IMG/VR virus record: IMGVR_UViG_2698536681_000004
Reading direction: 5' to 3' (one strand)
Source of the DNA: a virus
Taxonomy: Duplodnaviria; Heunggongvirae; Uroviricota; Caudoviricetes
DNA length: 42,656 bases
Notes under the pieces: generated by a model
What the model was told of the DNA's origin: nothing
What the model saw: the letters and a program-made list of their open reading frames with translations, nothing else
The model's database searches: none
Part shown: positions 2,735 through 42,656 of the stretch, piece by piece
Layout of the letters: each line of letters starts with the position of its first letter
Position numbering within the stretch: position 1 is the first letter of the stretch
Position numbers and translations under genes: made by a program

Positions 2735-3300
2735 GTAAGCGTGCAGCAAGAACCGTATTGACGGGAATGTGTTATTCAGTCGGCAGTGCTACGCGCCAGG
2801 GGAGCAGTTCGCCGACCCGGTTTATCGGCCAGTCGGCTATGACGTCAAGGACATAGCGGAGGTAGCTTTCTGGCTCCACTCCGTTCAGTTTGCACGTCCC
2901 GATCAGGCTGTACAGCAGCGCTCCCCGCTCTCCTCCATGATCCGAACCGAAGAACAGGTAGTTTTTGCGGCCCAGACTGACCATCCGCAACGCATTTTCA
3001 GCGATGTTATTGTCCGCCTCAGCCCAGCCATCATCTGCATAGTACGTCAGCGCCGGCCACTGGTTCAGGGCATATGCGAACGCTTTCGCCAGTTCTGAGT
3101 GTCGCGACAGGGTTTTCATCTTTTCACGCAGCCAGCTTTCCAGGGATTTCAGCAGCGGTTTCGTTTTCAACTGACGTTCGGCAAGGCGCTGTTTCAGCAG
3201 GAAGATGTCGTCAGAAGAGATGTCGTTCATAAGCCCGTATTTTACCGGGCTTATTCTGTGACAACCAGGATAAAGAGATTTACAGCATGGTCAGGGAGGT
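2735..3300 (-). mobile_element. IS66-family element, 3' portion (terminal repeat starting GTAAGCG at 2735 plus tnpC C-terminal region)
   Basis: IS66-family inverted repeats typically begin 5'-GTAA; GTAAGCGTGCAGCAAG at 2735 lies just beyond the transposase C-terminus; upstream boundary with the prophage end is not resolved. Confidence 0.55.
2772..3230 (-). pseudogene. tnpC: IS66-family transposase TnpC (orf3), C-terminal fragment only
   Basis: Translation ...GRKNYLFFGSDHGGERGALLYSLIGTCKLNGVEPESYLRYVLDVIADWP...ELLPW matches the conserved C-terminal region of IS66 transposases; the N-terminal two thirds are absent and the frame closes at a stop at 3291-3293. Confidence 0.7.
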
Positions 3301-3337
3301 CAGCAGCCGCTTAGGCTGTCTATAGCGCGGCGATTTT

Positions 3338-3405
3338 TTTGATACCGATTTGCATTTCATTTGATACCGCTGAAAAACGCCGATACGCAACTTATTTGAT
3401 ACTAA
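3338..3405. repeat. Prophage right end (attR-like): three closely spaced TTTGATAC(C/T) motifs, putative transposase binding sites
   Basis: TTTGATACCG at 3338-3347 and 3360-3369, TTTGATACTA at 3395-3404; the same motif occurs three times in reverse complement at the other prophage end. Confidence 0.6.
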
Positions 3406-3448: not shown

Positions 3449-4186
3449 TCATTCACTCTCTTTCAAACCAGTTTTAACTGTTTGTGGTTTTGGGTAAGGC
3501 TGGACTTTGAATAGCTTTGTGTTAAGGCGTTTTCTGGCTCTCTTGTCCAGAAACCGGATGTAACGAAACTGACGGAATTTATGAACACTGGCTCTGTCGA
3601 TATTAGCCCGCAGATGTTCACCTCGCTGTCCTCCTCGTTTGATTGCATTCTTGCAAATCTCGTGATACCACTCGCCATCAAGTTCATAGAATGTTGTTTC
3701 ATGACTGCCTACATAATCAAAATTGCTTGCCTGGTACACGACACCAAGACAGCCACAACGCTCATCTGCAAACGACTGAACCCACTGCACCTGCGGATAA
3801 AGTTGTCTGATTAGTTTGAGCGCGTAACTGATTGCCCTTGATTCGGAGTTTCTCGGCATACAGTCATGCAGCCATAACCGGTTAAGCTCCATATATTCGC
3901 GGTTCTGCGTGCCAGTTACGACGCGTGCACCATTGTTTGGATTAAGGGCATAACCCCATTGCATTACGCCAACCAGCTCCCGTTCTGAAAATATGCCCAG
4001 ATGAAGGTAGGAATTATTTACGAAACGATGGCTGTAATGTTTATTGACGACGACCAGCCGGGCCAGCCAGCAACTTATTGTCTCAACCCGTAACTCACGG
4101 GAGCCATAACCGACGATATTGTCGTTATAGTGAATAAGTTCAGGCGTGCTGATGATACGGGATGTAACTTGCTTTCTGTTCCCCAC
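3449..4186 (-). CDS. mom: Mom-like DNA modification protein (start internal to the long ORF, approximate)
   Basis: ORF overlaps the 3' end of com exactly as mom does in Mu and is the last gene before the prophage end; the longest ORF (to 4381) would run through com so the true start is internal, candidate GTG at 4186; Mom family assigned by synteny. Confidence 0.55.
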
Positions 4187-4340
4187 GACAGGATTTCCTT
4201 GTGTATGTGGGGTGCTCTGTGGCGCTCTGAGATGTGATTTGATTGAGGGTTTTACAGCGCGGACATTTAACTTCCAGATAACTGAAGCTGGCTCGTGCCA
4301 GTAGCTTGTTACAATGTCGGCACCGTATGTTTCGATACAT
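4140..4340 (-). CDS. com: Com-like zinc-finger translational activator of mom
   Basis: ATG at 4340 preceded by AGGAGG; product [27 protein letters not shown] has the CxxC...CPRC zinc finger and strong similarity to Mu Com as recalled (IRCKNCNKLLFKA...IEIRCPRCK). Confidence 0.75.
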
Positions 4341-4383
4341 GGCCGCATAACCTCCTGCTTTGTTGTTGATATCTTTATCACTC

Positions 4384-4408
4384 AATCGATCGACAAAAAC
4401 GATCGATT
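4384..4408. promoter_or_regulatory. Perfect 9-bp inverted repeat with a GATC Dam site in each arm, upstream of com-mom
   Basis: AATCGATCG (4384-4392), 7-nt spacer ACAAAAA, CGATCGATT (4400-4408); GATC at 4388-4391 and 4401-4404, a third GATC at 4470-4473; sits about 45-70 bp upstream of the com ATG. Confidence 0.4.
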
Positions 4409-5674: not shown

Positions 5675-7729
5675 TTACGCGTTATTCACTTCCACCACGA
5701 TACTGTCAATCAGTACCGGGTAAGTCGCATTTTTAGTGATATCGGTCACGCGCAACTTGTCTGCCGTAAACGTGCCGACCGGAGACTGCGACAGCATGAA
5801 TGGTGTCCCGTCCTTACCATCAATGACCGGCGTCACCTCAATACTGTTGTTACCGGCAAAACGGAAGCCCAGCGTATGCCATTCGTTATTAAATGCGCCG
5901 AATGACCCCAGCTTCGTGTTCTGCGCCGTGTTTCCTTTGTGATACATCACGTTAAGGTCTGTGGCATCGCTCTGTACGTAGAACGATGCCAGCAGGTTAT
6001 GACCGGCATTTCCTTCCAGAGTAACCCCTTGCGGCAGGGCAGAAACCGGCCAGTACAGCGCCAGTGCGTACTGATTAGCCGTAAGCGCGCCATCGAGTTT
6101 AAAACGACAACTGACAAGACCACCTTTACCCAGCAGGTCCGCACCATTACCAGCATCATGCTCAAGGTACCAGGGGGCTCTTCCTGTTTCCTTGGTCAGT
6201 TTCATTGCCTTACCCCCGCTGGCTCCGGCATCATCCACGATTTGAGCCTTGCCACCTCCGGCAGCCCAACCCTGTGGTGTCAACCGTCCTTCAGACTCAG
6301 ATGCCCGGTAAGCAAATAGCGTACTCATCGTCGTGGTGTCTGCGGGTGGCGTGGACGGTTTTGATGGTGTATCAGGTGACGGCTTCTCATCCGGTGGTGT
6401 CACGGTCTGCCCACGCATCAGTTCAGCCGTGCGCCCTGCATGGAGCATAATAGCTGAGGCCAGACGGTCTGAAATGACGCCCCTGCGTGCCCATGAGCTG
6501 AAATGGCTGTCACGCTGTGTCGAAACAAAACTGCCCTGGGTTCGGGATGCTGCACCGTAATACCCGACAGCCACAATATCCGGGTCTTCCGCCGGAGCAT
6601 TCGTTGGCGTGCTCTGTCCATTCTCATCCGTCAGGAACGGTACAAAGAAAATTTTCTGTGCTTCCTTGCCTTTGTAGCCACCGTATACTGCCTCATATTT
6701 ATCGGTGCCAGCGTTTTTCCAGTAATACGTGGTATCACCGCAAATCCACGGCACCGTGGTGGCATTTCCACTCACGCACTGCGCAGCAAGCGGAGCCAGG
6801 TCAGTTCTGAACTGCTGAACCATGGCCGTGAATAAACTATTATGCTGCTGGCTTCCTGAGGCAAGGTCTGCCTCTCCCTGCATCCAGACCACAGCCAGAA
6901 GTTTGTTTTTCGGGTTTTTCGCCAGCGCGACTTTGGTGCGGCTTACCAGGTCCTGATACAGAGGTTTACCGGCCCCCCAGCGTGAAGAATCAGCGGAAGC
7001 ACCGCTGGCCTCACTGAATGAGCCGTCGGCTCCAGTGGTGAATGCTGACCCGCCACGACAACAGGGCACCAGAAGTATCCCGGCATTCTGTGGGATATAG
7101 GGAAGCAGTTTTTTGGCAATATGCAACCCCTGACCGACAGTCCCGTACTGGCCTTTTGCCAGATCAGCTTTCGGGTGGTTTATCCCGCTCATATCCTGAA
7201 CATCATGCAGGCAGTGGTCTGCCGGAATGATGTCGTTGTATGTACACGACGTACCGTTGGGCGTTACCGTACTGCGGCGTGCCAGTTGCTTAATGCGTGG
7301 GTCCGGGCGGTCAAACGAATCCGGTAACGGCAGCCCCTCGCCGTAGGCCATGCCATTTGACTGACCCGCGAGAATGACAACAAAGTAATATTCCGGCTCT
7401 GAACTGCTGCCATTCGTGCTACCGGAAGGCCCGGCGTTATCCGGTGCATTCCAGTCGGAGGGCGTGAGCGTTCCGGCCACGTCAGATGTGATTGGAATGA
7501 TGCCAGTCACGCCTGAACTGGTGATTTCTGCACTGGGATTACCGGATACCGGCATTACCCATAATGGCTCTTTCGTGCTGAAGCGGATCACGCAGTCTGC
7601 GAAGGTGATCCCCCCTTTATTACCCGAAGGGCGGAAAGGGCTTTCAATAAATGCCACCGTGCCACCGGCAACCTTGACTGAAAACTCTCCGGGCATGGCG
7701 GAGAGCATTTTCCACTTGGAGTCTGACAT
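5675..7729 (-). CDS. NanS-p-like sialate O-acetylesterase family protein (SGNH/DUF303 esterase with C-terminal lectin-like domain)
   Basis: Catalytic-type motifs VVILAGQSNGMAYGEG and VVWMQGEADL typical of SASA/DUF303 esterases; 684 aa, comparable to prophage NanS-p esterases. Confidence 0.65.
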   Translation of the reverse strand: MSDSKWKMLSAMPGEFSVKVAGGTVAFIESPFRPSGNKGGITFADCVIRFSTKEPLWVMPVSGNPSAEITSSGVTGIIPITSDVAGTLTPSDWNAPDNAGPSGSTNGSSSEPEYYFVVILAGQSNGMAYGEGLPLPDSFDRPDPRIKQLARRSTVTPNGTSCTYNDIIPADHCLHDVQDMSGINHPKADLAKGQYGTVGQGLHIAKKLLPYIPQNAGILLVPCCRGGSAFTTGADGSFSEASGASADSSRWGAGKPLYQDLVSRTKVALAKNPKNKLLAVVWMQGEADLASGSQQHNSLFTAMVQQFRTDLAPLAAQCVSGNATTVPWICGDTTYYWKNAGTDKYEAVYGGYKGKEAQKIFFVPFLTDENGQSTPTNAPAEDPDIVAVGYYGAASRTQGSFVSTQRDSHFSSWARRGVISDRLASAIMLHAGRTAELMRGQTVTPPDEKPSPDTPSKPSTPPADTTTMSTLFAYRASESEGRLTPQGWAAGGGKAQIVDDAGASGGKAMKLTKETGRAPWYLEHDAGNGADLLGKGGLVSCRFKLDGALTANQYALALYWPVSALPQGVTLEGNAGHNLLASFYVQSDATDLNVMYHKGNTAQNTKLGSFGAFNNEWHTLGFRFAGNNSIEVTPVIDGKDGTPFMLSQSPVGTFTADKLRVTDITKNATYPVLIDSIVVEVNNA

Positions 7730-7800: not shown

Positions 7801-7834
7801 AATTCAAAAAAGCGTCACGGTACTTTTGGTGACG
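7801..7834 (-). terminator. Intrinsic terminator overlapping the invertase stop codon
   Basis: Stem CGTCAC (7813-7818) / GTGACG (7829-7834) with a 10-nt loop; on the minus strand followed by CTTTTTTGAATT. Confidence 0.5.
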
Positions 7835-8391
7835 GAGCTGGTGAGGCAGGAAAATAACGATAAAGGGTGGAAAGGCCAATATCAAATATCAGTGCGATTT
7901 GTTTACGGGACTCGCCATTAGCCAGCAAACGGGCGATTTGCTCCCGCTCTTTCTCTGTCAGTTTCTGAGGTCTGCCGCCATGACGCCCCTGAGCACGGGC
8001 AGCAGCAAGACCCGCGCGTGTACGTTCAATAATGAGTTCCCGCTCCATTTCCGCCAGCGCGCCCATTATATGGAAAAAGAAACGTCCCATGGGAGTGGAT
8101 GTATCAATATTGTCCGTAATGCTGCGGAAGTTAACGCCGCGTTGCCGGAGTTCTTCTGTTAAAAGGACAAGGTGCTGCATACTGCGTCCAAGGCGATCCA
8201 GTTTCCAGACCAGCAGGGTATCCCCTGGCCGGAGTCGCTTTAATGCGCGTTTAAGTCCGGGACGCTCCCTTGTCTTACCGCTTATTCTGTCTTCGAAAAA
8301 CAGCTCACATCCTGCACATTCCAGCGCATTTCTTTGTAGCGCCGTATTCTGGTCATTTGTTGACACCCTGATATACCCAATNNNNNNNNNN
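7815..8391 (-). CDS. gin: Serine recombinase, DNA invertase of the Gin/Pin/Hin family (first codons lost in the assembly gap)
   Basis: Translation IGYIRVSTNDQNTALQRNALECAGCELFFEDRISGKTRERPGLKRALKRL...GRFFFHIMGALAEMERELIIERT is near-identical in pattern to Gin/Pin; reading frame runs into the N-run at 8392. Confidence 0.9.
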
Positions 8392-8723
8392 NNNNNNNNN
8401 NNNNNNNNNNNNNNNNNNNNNNNNNNNNNNNNNNNNNNNNNNNNNNNNNNNNNNNNNNNNNNNNNNNNNNNNNNNNNNNNNNNNNNNNNNNNNNNNNNNN
8501 NNNNNNNNNNNNNNNNNNNNNNNNNNNNNNNNNNNNNNNNNNNNNNNNNNNNNNNNNNNNNNNNNNNNNNNNNNNNNNNNNNNNNNNNNNNNNNNNNNNN
8601 NNNNNNNNNNNNNNNNNNNNNNNNNNNNNNNNNNNNNNNNNNNNNNNNNNNNNNNNNNNNNNNNNNNNNNNNNNNNNNNNNNNNNNNNNNNNNNNNNNNN
8701 NNNNNNNNNNNNNNNNNNNNNNN
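8392..8723. other. Assembly gap (332 N)
   Basis: Uninterrupted run of n characters. Confidence 1.
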
Positions 8724-21701: not shown

Positions 21702-22649
21702 TTACAGATAATCCGCGACAACCAGCTCCAGCTTGCCCTTCATCTCGTTAGAGACTGTGGCGTTACCGTCTGCGAACAGCTCGCGCTCCAGCAGCTGCAC
21801 CGCCTGTTTTTCCAGCGAGGTGGGGACAACAATATGGGTGGGTTTGATGCCGAGTTTGCGGCCACCGTCAGCCTTAAAGTCACGCATGGCTGACCAGCCG
21901 TGCCACAGCGCATCCAGCGTCAGCGGTGACTGCATCATGTAGGCCATCTGCCAGAAGCCGTAGCCCACATTGCGACGGGCGGAAGCACCGAACACAAACT
22001 CGTTATCAGTAAACGCACGGCCTTCATCGACTTTTGTCTGGGCAACCAGTTCGGCTTTGCGGCGATCCTGATAAATCAGCGGTTTTACCGCGCGGGAGCA
22101 GTCAAGCAGATACCAGGCCGGGCCGCTGTAATCCGCCTGTGCACCGACAGAGCCGGTTTTTGCCACAAACATATTGCTGACCATCTGTGCATCACCGGAG
22201 CCATCCACTTTGGGGTAAACAGGGTGTTCGGTATCAAAGAAGTTCTGGCCGTCATAGCAGGCCGCATTCAGACCATCACGCAGTGCAGCAAAGACCAGTT
22301 CATCCGGTTGTGCCGCAGCGGCACGACCCATTTCCTGGAATAACGGGGAGTAGATGCCGAGATTGTCGTCTTCAAAGTCATCGCGGCTAATGGCAACGGT
22401 GCCTTCAAAGGTTTTGTTCACGATGGCGTAGCCATAGGCTTTCATCTTCTCGATGACGCGGGAGCCGATCCACTCACGGAACTGCGGGAACTGCCCCAGC
22501 CAGCCGTAGGTGTTGGATTTCGAGGTGGACGGCACGGTCATCGCAATTTTCTGGTACTGCGACGGAGCCATGGACATCCCGGCCTGAAAATCAGAACGGT
22601 AGCCCGTCATCAGGGCGGTGATCATCGCCGGTGTAATCGGGGTAGGCAT
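21702..22649 (-). CDS. Major capsid protein (Mu T/gp34-like)
   Basis: 315-aa product downstream of the protease/scaffold gene. Confidence 0.8.
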   Translation of the reverse strand: MPTPITPAMITALMTGYRSDFQAGMSMAPSQYQKIAMTVPSTSKSNTYGWLGQFPQFREWIGSRVIEKMKAYGYAIVNKTFEGTVAISRDDFEDDNLGIYSPLFQEMGRAAAAQPDELVFAALRDGLNAACYDGQNFFDTEHPVYPKVDGSGDAQMVSNMFVAKTGSVGAQADYSGPAWYLLDCSRAVKPLIYQDRRKAELVAQTKVDEGRAFTDNEFVFGASARRNVGYGFWQMAYMMQSPLTLDALWHGWSAMRDFKADGGRKLGIKPTHIVVPTSLEKQAVQLLERELFADGNATVSNEMKGKLELVVADYL

Positions 22650-38712: not shown

Positions 38713-40800
38713 TCAGGCCAGCGGATCACTTTCTTTTAATTTCGCTTCGAGCAGTTGCAATCCCCGCTGGAAATTACGCTCGTATTCTTCATCAGGTTCA
38801 TCGTCAGCGACCGGTTGCTGAACGGTCACCGTATTACCCACAGGGCGGTATATGTTTTCCAGCCAGGGCTCCTGCGGCTTGTGCTCCAGCACGTTGACAA
38901 CCTCATCCTCGGCATCACGGATTTTTTCCTCTGCGCGTTTACGCATGCCTTTAAGGCGCTGCTGCTGTTTGTAGTATTCCGCGCTGACAGGGAAGGCTTC
39001 GCGTTTATTGCCGTCCCATACCGCCTCGCAAATCACGCTGCCATCCGGGCGGCGCACGGTAATTCGTTCGGCATCATGAATGTCATAGCTGATAAGTACC
39101 TTACGGCCATGCTCGTCACGCAGCTCGGGCGCGTAGTAAATATTATTCAGCCAGCGTATTTCACAGCGTCTTACAGGGCGCTCCACCATCGGCCGGAACA
39201 TATCCCGCAGTTCAACATCGGACAGCCATTCAATTTCCGTGTCCTCTTCCGCCAGGCGTTTTTTTCTGAACTCCGCCGGGCTGTAATGTTTACCGTTCGG
39301 CTTCATGGGTAATTCATCGTGCGGCCGGTTGTTGTACCACTCAACACCGTCACGAATGGCATCAATCAGTTCAGACCAGGACGGTAAATCACGCATCGCT
39401 GACTGCTGCCGGGCGTTCAGCCGTTTGCCCTGTTGCAGGGCACTGAATGCCGAGCGTAAATCGCGGTTGGTTTTACGTAACGTCTCGCGATCTGCTCCTT
39501 TCCCGAAATAGGTGCGGTATTTACGGGCTATGCGCATCGGTAATGTGCGGTTAAGCCGTTCGATAATGCCCCGTCCCTGCGGATTACCGGCAATCCCTGT
39601 CGGGTGATTAATCCCCAGTCGTGGCAGTATCCCCACAATCTCCTTATCCAGGACGTCGGCGGTTTCCCCGGAGCCATTATCCGAGTAATACAGAAACGGT
39701 TTGCCATGATGGCGAATACCGTGCTGTATGGCACCGGCTACGGCGAAAACATTTTCAGCCAGGTCAAGGCTCCAGCCCACCACAAAGCGCGTGCCACCGT
39801 CGATAACAAAGGTCACTTCCGGTGCGAATGGCCGCCCGTGAACCGGGTGCGCGCATTTCAGCTTCATGCCGTGACCGTCACCAATCCAGACATAATTCAC
39901 CGGCATTCTGGACCAGTCGCGGCGCGTGAATCCCTCAAGCTGACGGTATTCACTGCCAGTTACCCGGCCTTTTTGTTTCACCACTTCCGGCAGTTTCTTC
40001 ATTGCGCGGCGAATGGTGTCATAAGAGGGCATGATATCGAGCATATAAGGCTCATCAGCGTGCCGGTGCTGCCATTCAGCAACAAAATCCTCGTAAGCCT
40101 CGGTCATTGGTCGGCCGTTTGACTGGCGATACTGCGCCAGAAATTCGGGCAGCCAGTTAATATCTTCGGCTTTTATTTCCTGGCGTTTACCCGGTGCCAG
40201 TAAAAGCAGGCGTTCAGCGGCGTTCTGTGCCTTGTTAAAGGCCGCAATCCAGCGTTTCAGCGTGATTTCACTCAACGCGCGGCTGTTTCCCTTTTTGGCG
40301 TTCGCCGTCTCAACCATTGCCACAATGCGCTCGTCCAGTTGTGATCGTGCCAGGCTGTTAACGAGGAACCGGATAGCTTTAGCGCAGCTGAAACCGGGTT
40401 GTTGCGTGAATTTCAGCACCTCACTGACGATCGCAATGCGTGCGTCTGCCACCTGGCGCTGGTTTTCAGTCAGGGCATTGAGGCGTTCGACCATCAGTTG
40501 TGGTGATCCGCGATATGCCTCCACCGCATCAACCACGGCAGACGAGCGTCTGGCCTTTGTCACCACCGGAGCCGGTGATTCATCGGCTTTTTGCGTCATC
40601 AGTTGCAGGGCATAACGTTCGCGTAATGCCTGCTGTGTCACTTCAGGTAAACAGTCAATGCTGTATTCAAAACCTTTAGCGCCTTTCTTGCGGCGTCTGC
40701 TGGTTTCGCTGGTTGCATACTTCCTGATTGAATAGCGAACGCCTTGCTCCGTTCCCGGCATCCCCGGTAATCCAACCAGTTCTTTAACTGAAGCAAACAT
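38713..40800 (-). CDS. A: DDE transposase A (MuA-like)
   Basis: 695-aa product with N-terminal DNA-binding region and central integrase-like core; follows ner. Confidence 0.85.
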   Translation of the reverse strand: MFASVKELVGLPGMPGTEQGVRYSIRKYATSETSRRRKKGAKGFEYSIDCLPEVTQQALRERYALQLMTQKADESPAPVVTKARRSSAVVDAVEAYRGSPQLMVERLNALTENQRQVADARIAIVSEVLKFTQQPGFSCAKAIRFLVNSLARSQLDERIVAMVETANAKKGNSRALSEITLKRWIAAFNKAQNAAERLLLLAPGKRQEIKAEDINWLPEFLAQYRQSNGRPMTEAYEDFVAEWQHRHADEPYMLDIMPSYDTIRRAMKKLPEVVKQKGRVTGSEYRQLEGFTRRDWSRMPVNYVWIGDGHGMKLKCAHPVHGRPFAPEVTFVIDGGTRFVVGWSLDLAENVFAVAGAIQHGIRHHGKPFLYYSDNGSGETADVLDKEIVGILPRLGINHPTGIAGNPQGRGIIERLNRTLPMRIARKYRTYFGKGADRETLRKTNRDLRSAFSALQQGKRLNARQQSAMRDLPSWSELIDAIRDGVEWYNNRPHDELPMKPNGKHYSPAEFRKKRLAEEDTEIEWLSDVELRDMFRPMVERPVRRCEIRWLNNIYYAPELRDEHGRKVLISYDIHDAERITVRRPDGSVICEAVWDGNKREAFPVSAEYYKQQQRLKGMRKRAEEKIRDAEDEVVNVLEHKPQEPWLENIYRPVGNTVTVQQPVADDEPDEEYERNFQRGLQLLEAKLKESDPLA

Positions 40801-40802
40801 AA

Positions 40803-41033
40803 TTACGCGACCTTACGAATGTAGCGGCTGGGCCAAATCTCCTCGGGCGGCACCCCCAGGCATTCCGCGATAATCCCCTCATACTTGGGAACATGGCGGT
40901 ATACCGCGTTGTACAGATTGTTCTGACCCACGCCAGCTTTACGGGCCAGCGCCCTCATGCTTCCTTCTCTGGCTCTGACTTCCCCCAAAATTCTTTGAGG
41001 ATGCCAATCAGGCTTAACTTCATTTCTCGCCAT
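40803..41033 (-). CDS. ner: Ner-like DNA-binding regulator
   Basis: Translation ...VKPDWHPQRILGEVRAR..SMRALARKAGVGQNNLYNAV...EEIWPSRY parallels Mu Ner as recalled. Confidence 0.75.
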   Translation of the reverse strand: MARNEVKPDWHPQRILGEVRAREGSMRALARKAGVGQNNLYNAVYRHVPKYEGIIAECLGVPPEEIWPSRYIRKVA

Positions 41034-41218
41034 GATTCATCTATCCTAAAAAGTTACGAAATTTGATAACTAAACTTAGTTATCAAGTTTGATATAAGTA
41101 TTGATCCACTTCTGCTTCATGTAAAGCAAAAAAAACATCTTTCTTTTGTCTATTGTGGATCAATGGTTGCTGACAACACTAAAAGTTAATAATTTCAAAT
41201 TGATAGGAAGAAAAGAAA
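41034..41218. promoter_or_regulatory. Divergent early/repressor control region with operator-like palindromes
   Basis: Perfect palindrome TTGATAACTA AACT TAGTTATCAA (41063-41086) and inverted repeat ATTGATCCAC (41100-41109) / GTGGATCAAT (41155-41164), both arms of the second containing GATC. Confidence 0.5.
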
Positions 41219-41764
41219 ATGAACAAGCAAACAACAACATCTCTTTCTTTTCCTGGTGGTAGAAAAGAAAGCATTGCTGAGCGTCTGAAAAGGCTGATTG
41301 GCTCCCGCAGCGTCAGAGCTGCAGCAAGAGATTGGGGGCTTTCATTTTCAACACTAAACAATTATCTGTCTCGTGGCACTGAGCCATCCTTAAGTGTCGC
41401 CCTTCAGATTGCGTCTATCGAAGGAGTAAGTGTTGAGTGGCTATGTGGATTCAGTGATGCATCACAAGTGAATCGGTGTGAGATCAAGGAAAATCAAGAT
41501 GAAAGCAAGAAGATAATTATGACGATTATCAGCGCACTTGATGAAAAAGACTTAGAGCAGCTATCGAAAAATTTGGTTCTGAATGGAGCCAAGTACTTAG
41601 CTCGGTTGTTAGAGCCTGAAAATCAAGATCTAATCCGCTTAGAAGGAAGGAAAAGAATAGCTGCATTACAGCTTGAAGGTATGTCTGACGAACGCGTCAG
41701 AGAGATTTTGGAAGAAACTGAGAGAAGTCGCAAATCTAACGCGGTAGAACCAAAAGCGGGTTAA
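41219..41764 (+). CDS. c: Prophage repressor (c-like, helix-turn-helix)
   Basis: Divergent from ner across an operator-rich region; HTH-like segment WGLSFSTLNNYLSRGTEPSL; last gene before the prophage end. Confidence 0.6.
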   Translation: MNKQTTTSLSFPGGRKESIAERLKRLIGSRSVRAAARDWGLSFSTLNNYLSRGTEPSLSVALQIASIEGVSVEWLCGFSDASQVNRCEIKENQDESKKIIMTIISALDEKDLEQLSKNLVLNGAKYLARLLEPENQDLIRLEGRKRIAALQLEGMSDERVREILEETERSRKSNAVEPKAG

Positions 41765-41836
41765 TAGCATTAGCCCGCATTTTGCACTATATCGAGTATT
41801 TCGCATTGTTTGGAACGCCTTAAAAGACTAAAACCA

Positions 41837-42000
41837 CAGTATCAAATGAGTTGCCGATTTTATAATAAATGACTAATTATTGCACAATCGGTATCAAATA
41901 GACCTTATCCGCACATCTAGCCATCACCTGTTTTATTTCAGTATCTTACAGGTGATTTCACCTCCTTTCACTAAACCCCTTGTCGGTATCAAATGATTCA
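41837..42000. repeat. Prophage left end (attL-like): three spaced copies of the end motif in reverse complement, terminal CA at 42000
   Basis: CAGTATCAAATG (41837-41848), CGGTATCAAATA (41889-41900), CGGTATCAAATG (41985-41996); spread-out spacing contrasts with the compact set at the other end, as for Mu attL versus attR. Confidence 0.6.
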
Positions 42001-42321
42001 CCTGGTTATATGTCGCCAGTCGATACCTTCCAGCAGCATCGCCAGCTGCGCCTGTGTAAGGAACACTTTGCCATCACGGGCTGACGGCCAGGCGAAGCGC
42101 CCACGCTCCAGCCGTTTGGTCAGGAGGCACAGTCCGTCACTGGTGGACCACAGCAGTTTAACCTGACTGCCGCTGCGGCCCCGGAAAATGAAAACATGGC
42201 CGGACATGGGATCGTCTTTCAGCGCCGTCTGTACTTTCGCAGCCAGGCCGTTGAAGCCATTTCTCATATCGGTGATACCGGCAACCAGCCAAATTTTGAT
42301 CCCGGAAGGTAACGGGATCAT
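41998..42321 (-). CDS. tnpB: IS66-family accessory protein TnpB (orf2)
   Basis: Translation MIPLPSGIKIWLVAGITDMRNGFNGLAAKVQ...DGKVFLTQAQLAMLLEGIDWR matches IS66 Orf2; the C-terminus may be altered by the prophage junction. Confidence 0.8.
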   Translation of the reverse strand: MIPLPSGIKIWLVAGITDMRNGFNGLAAKVQTALKDDPMSGHVFIFRGRSGSQVKLLWSTSDGLCLLTKRLERGRFAWPSARDGKVFLTQAQLAMLLEGIDWRHITR

Positions 42322-42548
42322 CGCTTCAGTTCCTGTATCAGCAGAGTCAGGAGCTTTTCGCTGACATTGCCATTGAAGCGGAGCGTCCCGTGCCGGAACG
42401 TTACCTCACAGCTGATACTGAGGGTTTTCGGGTCCTCTGCGAGCGATTCTGGCTGTTCGGCAGCTGCATCGAGAGTCACAGGAAGTAGCTGGGGGCTCTC
42501 TGAAGAAGGTAATAGCTGAGGTGTACTGGCAATAGCGGACACTACCAT
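42318..42548 (-). CDS. tnpA: IS66-family TnpA (orf1), possibly 5'-truncated
   Basis: Overlaps tnpB start as in IS66 operons; ends ...TFRHGTLRFNGNVSEKLLTLLIQELKR; shorter than typical. Confidence 0.65.
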   Translation of the reverse strand: MVVSAIASTPQLLPSSESPQLLPVTLDAAAEQPESLAEDPKTLSISCEVTFRHGTLRFNGNVSEKLLTLLIQELKR

Positions 42549-42559
42549 TTGTTCTTTTT

Positions 42560-42656
42560 TTAAGCAGCCATCTGATGATATTTTTCCCTGAAGGCTGCCG
42601 GGGAGATATTCCCCAGACGAGAGTGACGACGCTGACGATTGTAGAAAATCTCAATG
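42560..42656 (-). CDS. IS3-family transposase (orfB) C-terminal end, partial at window edge
   Basis: Translation IEIFYNRQRRHSRLGNISPAAFREKYHQMAA then stop at 42560-42562 matches the conserved C-terminus of IS3-family OrfB. Confidence 0.65.
   Translation of the reverse strand, partial: IEIFYNRQRRHSRLGNISPAAFREKYHQMAA

Follow-up and report, generated by a model that had tools for sequence, protein, structure and literature searches.

A complete Sp18-type Mu-like prophage of 38,690 bp occupies positions 3321-42010 of the window (the whole 42,656-nt stretch of DNA analysed here) in minus orientation, and has very probably integrated by DDE transposition into a resident IS66 element, within the last 12 codons of tnpB. 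Both prophage ends were mapped, and the limits follow from the split IS66 sequence and from a blastn comparison of its flanks with the intact IS, in which IS66 reference positions 907-910 occur at either end of the prophage. A sequence-only reading had taken this region for the left end of a transposon-like prophage and had placed its terminus at 42000. It is indeed the left end of a transposable prophage, on the repressor side; the true end is 42010, 10 bp further, and IS66 resumes at 42011. The region is the ordinary left end of a well-known prophage type, inside a dead IS66. The closest relatives of the window prophage, 99.4-99.7% identical over 99% of its length, are prophages of two non-O157 E. 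coli strains, 600029 and HH35, of Bangladeshi and Canadian origin. The features are collected in the table.

Table. Features of the prophage, its ends and the interrupted IS66 (positions in the window)
Feature	Position	Strand	Evidence or remark
Rest of IS66 remnant, right inverted-repeat end GTAAGCG at 2735	2735-3279	-	blastn to intact copy
tnpC remnant, 152-aa fusion of N-terminus to C-terminal DDE/IS66_C part	2772-3230	-	Pfam DDE_Tnp_IS66, DDE_Tnp_IS66_C
Displaced tnpB 3' remainder (QPKRLLTSLTML + TAA)	3280-3320	-	far side of prophage
Target-site duplication copy 1, TGTC	3317-3320	.	single in uninterrupted IS66
Complete Sp18-type Mu-like prophage	3321-42010	-	Pfam, end mapping, ~99.4-99.7% identity to E. 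coli prophages
Right end (attR), terminus 5'-TATAGCGCGG at 3321	3321-3405	+	alignments, repeats
R1 TTTTTTGATACCGA	3335-3348		15-28 from right terminus
R2 TCATTTGATACCGC	3357-3370		37-50 from right terminus
R3 TTATTTGATACTAA	3392-3405		72-85 from right terminus
Com/Mom, near right end	3449-4385	-	ORF map
MuB-like ATPase, 313 aa	37698-38639	-	Pfam Phage-MuB_C 7.8e-25 + AAA_22
MuA-like transposase, 695 aa	38713-40800	-	Pfam Mu-transpos_C 2.1e-17, HTH_Tnp_Mu_1 1.3e-08
ner, 76 aa	40803-41033	-	Pfam HTH_35, 1e-21
c repressor, 181 aa, divergently transcribed	41219-41764	+	ORF layout
Left end (attL), terminus ...CACCTGGTTATA at 42010	41836-42010	+	repeats; kept in LC727881, Sakai Sp18
L3 TCATTTGATACTGT	41836-41849		162-175 from left terminus
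L2 CTATTTGATACCGA	41888-41901		110-123 from left terminus
L1 TCATTTGATACCGA	41983-41996		15-28 from left terminus
Chimeric, shortened IS66 tnpB, 107 aa, ...DWRHITR*	41998-42321	-	Pfam TnpB_IS66 1.2e-37, residues 9-105
Target-site duplication copy 2, TGTC	42011-42014	.	blastn
IS66 tnpA 3' part	42318-42516	-	cut at 42516/42517 by IS3-family element

Junctions with IS66 and the chimeric TnpB

The left junction was mapped by a search of complete E. coli genomes with window positions 41990-42656, in which the matching to IS66 starts at query base 22, window position 42011 and not 42001. The uninterrupted reference, a 99.6% identical IS66 copy on NZ_CP027392.1 (the pAA plasmid of E. coli O104:H4), reads ...gccgcttgggcTGTCgccagtcgatacc... 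(...GCTTGGGCTGTCGCCAGTCG) and has one ...GGGCTGTCGCCAG only. In the window, the right side reads ...gccgcttaggcTGTC up to 3320, then tatagcgcggcgattttttt gataccg, and the left side reads ...caaatgattcacctggttata up to 42010, then TGTCgccagtcgatacc, giving the junctions ...GGCTGTC/TATAGCG at 3320/3321 and ...GGTTATA/TGTCGCC at 42010/42011. Alignment to an uninterrupted IS66, which the sequence-only reading had proposed as the means of fixing the left junction, thereby places it at 42010/42011, in agreement with about 20 independent insertions of this phage family.

The ten bases 42001-42010 (CCTGGTTATA) are kept in every independent insertion examined of the Sp18-type phage family, and are absent from the uninterrupted IS66 copy. 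Because related left ends are conserved up to the CA/TA dinucleotide and the flank beyond is variable, these bases are assigned to the phage, with TA as the terminal dinucleotide of the window copy. The string ...ATGATTCA ending at 42000 is present as described, and its ...ATTCA is internal, at positions 11-15 from the left terminus. There is no TG...CA terminus at 42000: the window copy ends in TA, and both prophage ends read 5'-TATA inward.

The break in tnpB falls within codons 103-104 of 115, 36 nt upstream of the native stop codon. Of the two sites originally considered, the C-terminus of tnpB is the right one, and the tnpB-tnpC junction is not. Bases 42011-42321 of the chimeric ORF are IS66 and 41998-42010 are phage left-end DNA; the third base of the His codon (CA/T) is phage DNA, as are the codons ATA ACC AGG TGA that follow it (42009-41998), hence the stop codon is phage-supplied, as had been suspected. 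The TGA, complement of 41998-42000, lies 11-13 nt inside the phage end and not at its tip. Intact TnpB has 115 aa and ends in ...DWRQPKRLLTSLTML (...EGIDWRQPKRLLTSLTML), not in ...DWRHITR, so that the ending named as refuting the sequence-only reading is not found, and the window TnpB has the tail ...EGIDWRHITR; the TnpB_IS66 Pfam domain (residues 9-105) is essentially complete in the 107-aa chimera. This exact 107-aa protein is indexed in 110 blocks of public assemblies (more than 100 assemblies), and has the same repressor, ner and transposase genes as neighbours at each of the four loci listed. CP176614.1 and CWZC01000017.1 are among the records that carry the identical chimeric tnpB. The insertion in tnpB marks a bacterial lineage that has inherited it. 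The genome contigs scanned contain 0 matches for the left-end core and 0 for the exact phage/IS66 junction.

The interrupted element has tnpA, tnpB (Orf2) and DDE tnpC in the order of IS66 (Pfam and 99.6% identity), sharing with the NZ_CP027392.1 copy the tnpA-tnpB-tnpC arrangement, the TnpB_IS66, DDE_Tnp_IS66 and IS66_C domains and the terminal GTAAGCG. An intact IS66 has both inverted repeats and an 8-bp target duplication; in the window the element is no longer intact, its left part being replaced at 42517 by an IS3-family element. This IS66 copy is dead, with tnpB split, tnpC lacking 1080 bp and tnpA cut. The 1080-bp tnpC deletion is in frame and, because it is internal to one IS66 half and lies between 18-bp direct repeats (overlap at 3176-3193), is regarded as an independent event. 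The IS3-family insertion (42517-42656) is placed later than the phage, since some other assemblies with the phage/tnpB fusion (L042 and L043 loci) keep an intact tnpA of 126-129 aa. Outside the IS66 right end, tail-fibre-like ORFs of another phage remnant occupy 972-2718 on the minus strand, and a 170-aa ORF at 280-792 resembles, to the eye, the E3-ligase region at the C-terminus of IpaH effectors; this ipaH-like fragment suggests a Shigella or EIEC host.

End repeats and gene content of the prophage

Of the three CGGTATCAAATGA-like motifs at the left end, that at 41984-41996 is exact, and those at 41837-41849 and 41889-41901 have 1 and 2 mismatches, respectively. With up to 2 mismatches, CGGTATCAAATGA has 7 matches in the window compared with 1.1 expected, a number reached by 0 of 100 shuffles, and the exact 8-mer TTTGATAC also occurs 7 times (0.94 expected). 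Six of the seven TTTGATAC sites lie within 175 bp of a prophage terminus, three per end and mutually inverted (41839-41993 on the minus strand and 3338-3402 on the plus strand, ~38.7 kb apart). The three spaced motifs first noticed at the left end are therefore real, being enriched over expectation and over shuffles, and are mirrored by an inverted triplet at the other end, so that the prophage carries the multiple inverted repeats at both ends (six TTTGATAC sites) that characterize Mu-like phages. The 14-bp repeat consensus, reading inward, is TYATTTGATACYGA. By analogy with L1-L3 and R1-R3 of Mu, the six repeats are putative binding sites of the phage MuA-like transposase. The seventh TTTGATAC site (22229-22241), the only one off the ends, lies ~430 bp from the prophage midpoint; with about one site expected by chance, it is probably nothing. 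Mu itself has a central gyrase site.

Both LC727881 and Sp18 retain the repeats and the outermost 28 bp, although the left-end region as a whole is only ~81% identical to LC727881 outside the repeats. Six putative sites have been cited for Mu, FluMu, Pnm1 and Sp18 by the authors of the KS10 study (PMC2628397). Between L1 and L2, an inverted repeat at 41923-41956 (ATCACCTGT...ACAGGTGAT, 9-bp stem, 16-nt loop, DNA fold z-score -5.25) is identical in LC727881 and Sp18 though adjacent bases differ. It is not an obvious terminator, as no T-run follows the stem; it may serve as an accessory site or bind a host factor. A promoter/terminator scan of 40700-42100 gave no signal beyond shuffle expectation.

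The phage gene map runs from right to left in the window. The repressor and Ner genes are divergent beside the left end and are followed by the A and B genes (ORFs from 41764 to 37698), with both a MuA-type DDE transposase and a MuB-type AAA+ ATPase found by Pfam, as in Mu-like phages. A Gin-like serine invertase is encoded at 7815-8366, and the adjacent 8382-8723 is the sole prophage stretch unmatched in the 99.4-99.7% identical E. coli prophages, probably reflecting variation of an invertible tail-fibre segment. Between the invertase and com/mom lies a 684-aa ORF (5675-7729), apparently a cargo gene of the Sp18 phage group, whose counterparts in related prophages carry no annotation beyond DUF6645. 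ARAGORN finds no tRNA in the window; PGAP annotates an 80-nt 'tRNA-OTHER' amid the head-morphogenesis genes of near-identical E. coli prophages (L004 17674-17753, with equivalents in L005-L007).

Independent insertions and the origin of the junctions

Junctions of related prophages came from four E. coli chromosomes (L004-L007), from LC727881, a Stx-phage record (L002, L003), and from 30 IMG/VR contigs (L008-L037). The left end, used as query, has matches in 234 E. coli records, at many different genes, and these break off at query position 231 (window 42010) to within a few chance bases. Flanks diverge directly after TATAGCG... in 18 right ends and after ...GGTTAYA in ~19 left ends. The right end is always 5'-TATAGCGCGGCGATTTTTTTGATACCGA, with terminal dinucleotide TA in 18/18 junctions examined and a variable base before TATAGCG; the left end invariably reads ...CACCTGGTTA and then CA (~11 distinct sites) or TA (8 sites, so that about half are CA), beyond which the sequence varies. 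Relatives occupy unrelated sites (sgrR, elyC, a diguanylate cyclase gene, sorM and a Stx phage), as is typical of Mu-like phages.

A 4-bp duplication is present in 7/7 paired junctions, including those of CA-left-end copies: TGTC in the window (IS66 tnpB), TGTT in L004 (sgrR), CGTA in L006 (diguanylate cyclase gene), GATG in LC727881 (where the record itself annotates 4 bp), TGTT in L013/L028, TTCT in L009/L036 and TAAA in Sakai Sp18 (sorM). Two ways of recovering a 5-bp duplication were considered and rejected. Shifting either boundary by one base fails for the window, L004, L006 and Sp18. Reading LC727881 as a TG...CA phage with a 5-bp GATGA duplication requires its 'TG' to be phage sequence, whereas the two bases before TATAGCG vary in the 18 right-end junctions, which identifies this 'TG' as host flank. 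A right end in TA, a left end in CA or TA and a 4-bp duplication are a trait of the Sp18-type family. The literature searched yielded no paper that describes a 4-bp duplication for Sp18-like phages, but the trait is treated as known because LC727881 annotates it: the duplication is known to annotators (GenBank LC727881), is not prominent in the literature, and is no discovery about the window.

In the mechanism proposed by analogy with Mu, a MuA-like transposase would bind the six end repeats to form a transpososome, and would join both 3' ends of the phage (each ...TATA-3') to IS66 at positions staggered by 4 bp. Gap repair would then duplicate TGTC, the duplication itself being observed. As a by-product, tnpB now reads 13 nt into the phage end to an in-frame TGA, the native tail QPKRLLTSLTML being replaced by HITR. 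More generally, the transpososome of Sp18-type phages, though of Mu-like build, probably cuts behind a terminal TA, invariably so at the right end and with CA as the alternative at the left, and uses a 4-bp target stagger.

That the phage instead terminates at 42000 in ...ATTCA, as a TG...CA end with IS66 from 42001, has practically no chance of being right. The idea draws on the ATTCA that ends at 42000 and on its complement TGA, which resembles a TG start, and Mu does carry TGATTCA near its own left terminus; yet the IS66 match begins at 42011, not 42001, and the intervening bases 42001-42010 are missing from intact IS66 and conserved in related prophages at any site. It is also very improbable that the junction is secondary, produced by IS66 insertion beside the prophage or by recombination or deletion between two IS66 copies. 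The IS66 remnant is indeed damaged elsewhere, in tnpC and in tnpA, but the tnpC deletion is internal to one half, the IS66 inverted-repeat end is far from the phage (at 2735), and the two IS66 halves meet the phage at consecutive positions of the intact IS with an overlap of exactly 4 bp, the size duplicated in every other insertion of the family examined.

Taken alone, the window copy with its TA termini and 4-bp duplication could resemble a decayed end. Mu needs a terminal CA for efficient cleavage, and about half of the related left ends are CA, which would fit decay of the TA termini from TG...CA in an immobile fossil whose 4-bp repeat is coincidental. We consider this very improbable: none of the 18 right-end junctions examined has anything but TA, the 4-bp repeat recurs in all seven pairs, CA-left-end copies among them, and TA left ends are found at at least 8 different insertion sites, indicating that TA-ended phages transpose. 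TA-TA ends are moreover documented in other transposable prophages (PMC8705779). Integration of an Sp18-type phage into tnpB by DDE transposition is accordingly the reading we retain.

Relation to known transposable phages and implications

With the Sp18 group (E. coli O157:H7 Sakai and LC727881), the window prophage shares six TTTGATAC repeats, the 4-bp duplication, a length of ~38.7 kb and a Mu-like gene order. Alignments show that its ends are those of Sakai Sp18 and STEC Sp18-like phages (Mu_JNE082796 in LC727881), with left TRTAACCAGGTGAATCATTTGATACC... and right ...GGTATCAAAAAAATCGCCGCGCTATA, and these common end sequences place it in the group; the left terminal dinucleotide of Sp18 is CA, in contrast to TA in the window copy. 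The ends of Sp18 were reportedly analysed by Morgan et al. in 2002. The RefSeq feature 'prophage Sp18' (NC_002695.2, 5040971-5079729) starts 1 base inside the left terminus (GTAACC, not TGTAACC) and overshoots the right terminus by 5 bases, into the target duplication and flank (positions L039 572 / L040 630). Mu-like phages similar to Sp18 have been described at variable loci, including the interiors of other prophages (PMC10132054, PMC7430833, PMC2669165).

The c/ner/A/B layout of the left end is shared with Mu (and with D108 and SfMu). A further feature in common with Mu is the pattern of three repeats per end, the putative transposase sites (L1 near the terminus, a ~80-bp gap, then L2/L3, with the right three close together). 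Both phages also carry com/mom at the right end and a Gin-type invertase, insert at random and leave a short target duplication. The positions of the Mu L1-L3/R1-R3 sites are said to have been reported by Craigie et al. in 1984. In contrast, the Mu consensus repeat is unrelated to the window repeat, and Mu has CA termini and a 5-bp duplication where the window has TA/YA termini and 4 bp; instead of the 5'-TG...CA-3' ends and 5 bp of Mu sensu stricto, the window shows TATA.../...TATA and TGTC. A phmmer comparison with the PDB aligns the transposase to Mu transposase chains over residues 2-62 only, the N-terminal DNA-binding domain; the analogy to the mechanism of Mu is accordingly drawn from domain content, gene order and the architecture of the ends.

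High identity to Mu, D108 or SfMu is not observed. Megablast against a phage collection gave no match to Mu or SfMu records, the matches being two Stx-phage records only, both with Sp18-like inserts. SfMu was rejected as the identity of the prophage, as it is close to Mu, with proteins >90% identical (PMC4406740), and the window phage is not. Transposable prophages of Leptospira are reported to have TA-TA ends like those of the window, but with a 6-bp duplication and in an unrelated host (PMC8705779).

The main value of these results lies in correct annotation, the prophage boundary being 3321-42010 and not one ending at 42000. The 107-aa 'TnpB' is a phage-IS fusion artefact and no natural Orf2 variant, and will be annotated as an ordinary TnpB. 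Presuming TG...CA ends and a 5-bp scar leads to misplaced ends of Sp18-type prophages. A 5- or 6-bp duplication is regarded as a recognizable integration scar and a key feature to identify transposable prophages (PMC8705779), and tools screening for such duplications would miss or mis-trim Sp18-type phages, which are common in E. coli and Shigella. If the proposed behaviour of the Sp18-type transpososome is true, its 4-bp stagger falls outside the 5-6-bp scar used to recognize transposable prophages, and the C/T polymorphism at the penultimate position of the left end, which recurs among many insertion sites, would constitute a natural experiment on tolerance at a position that is critical in Mu.
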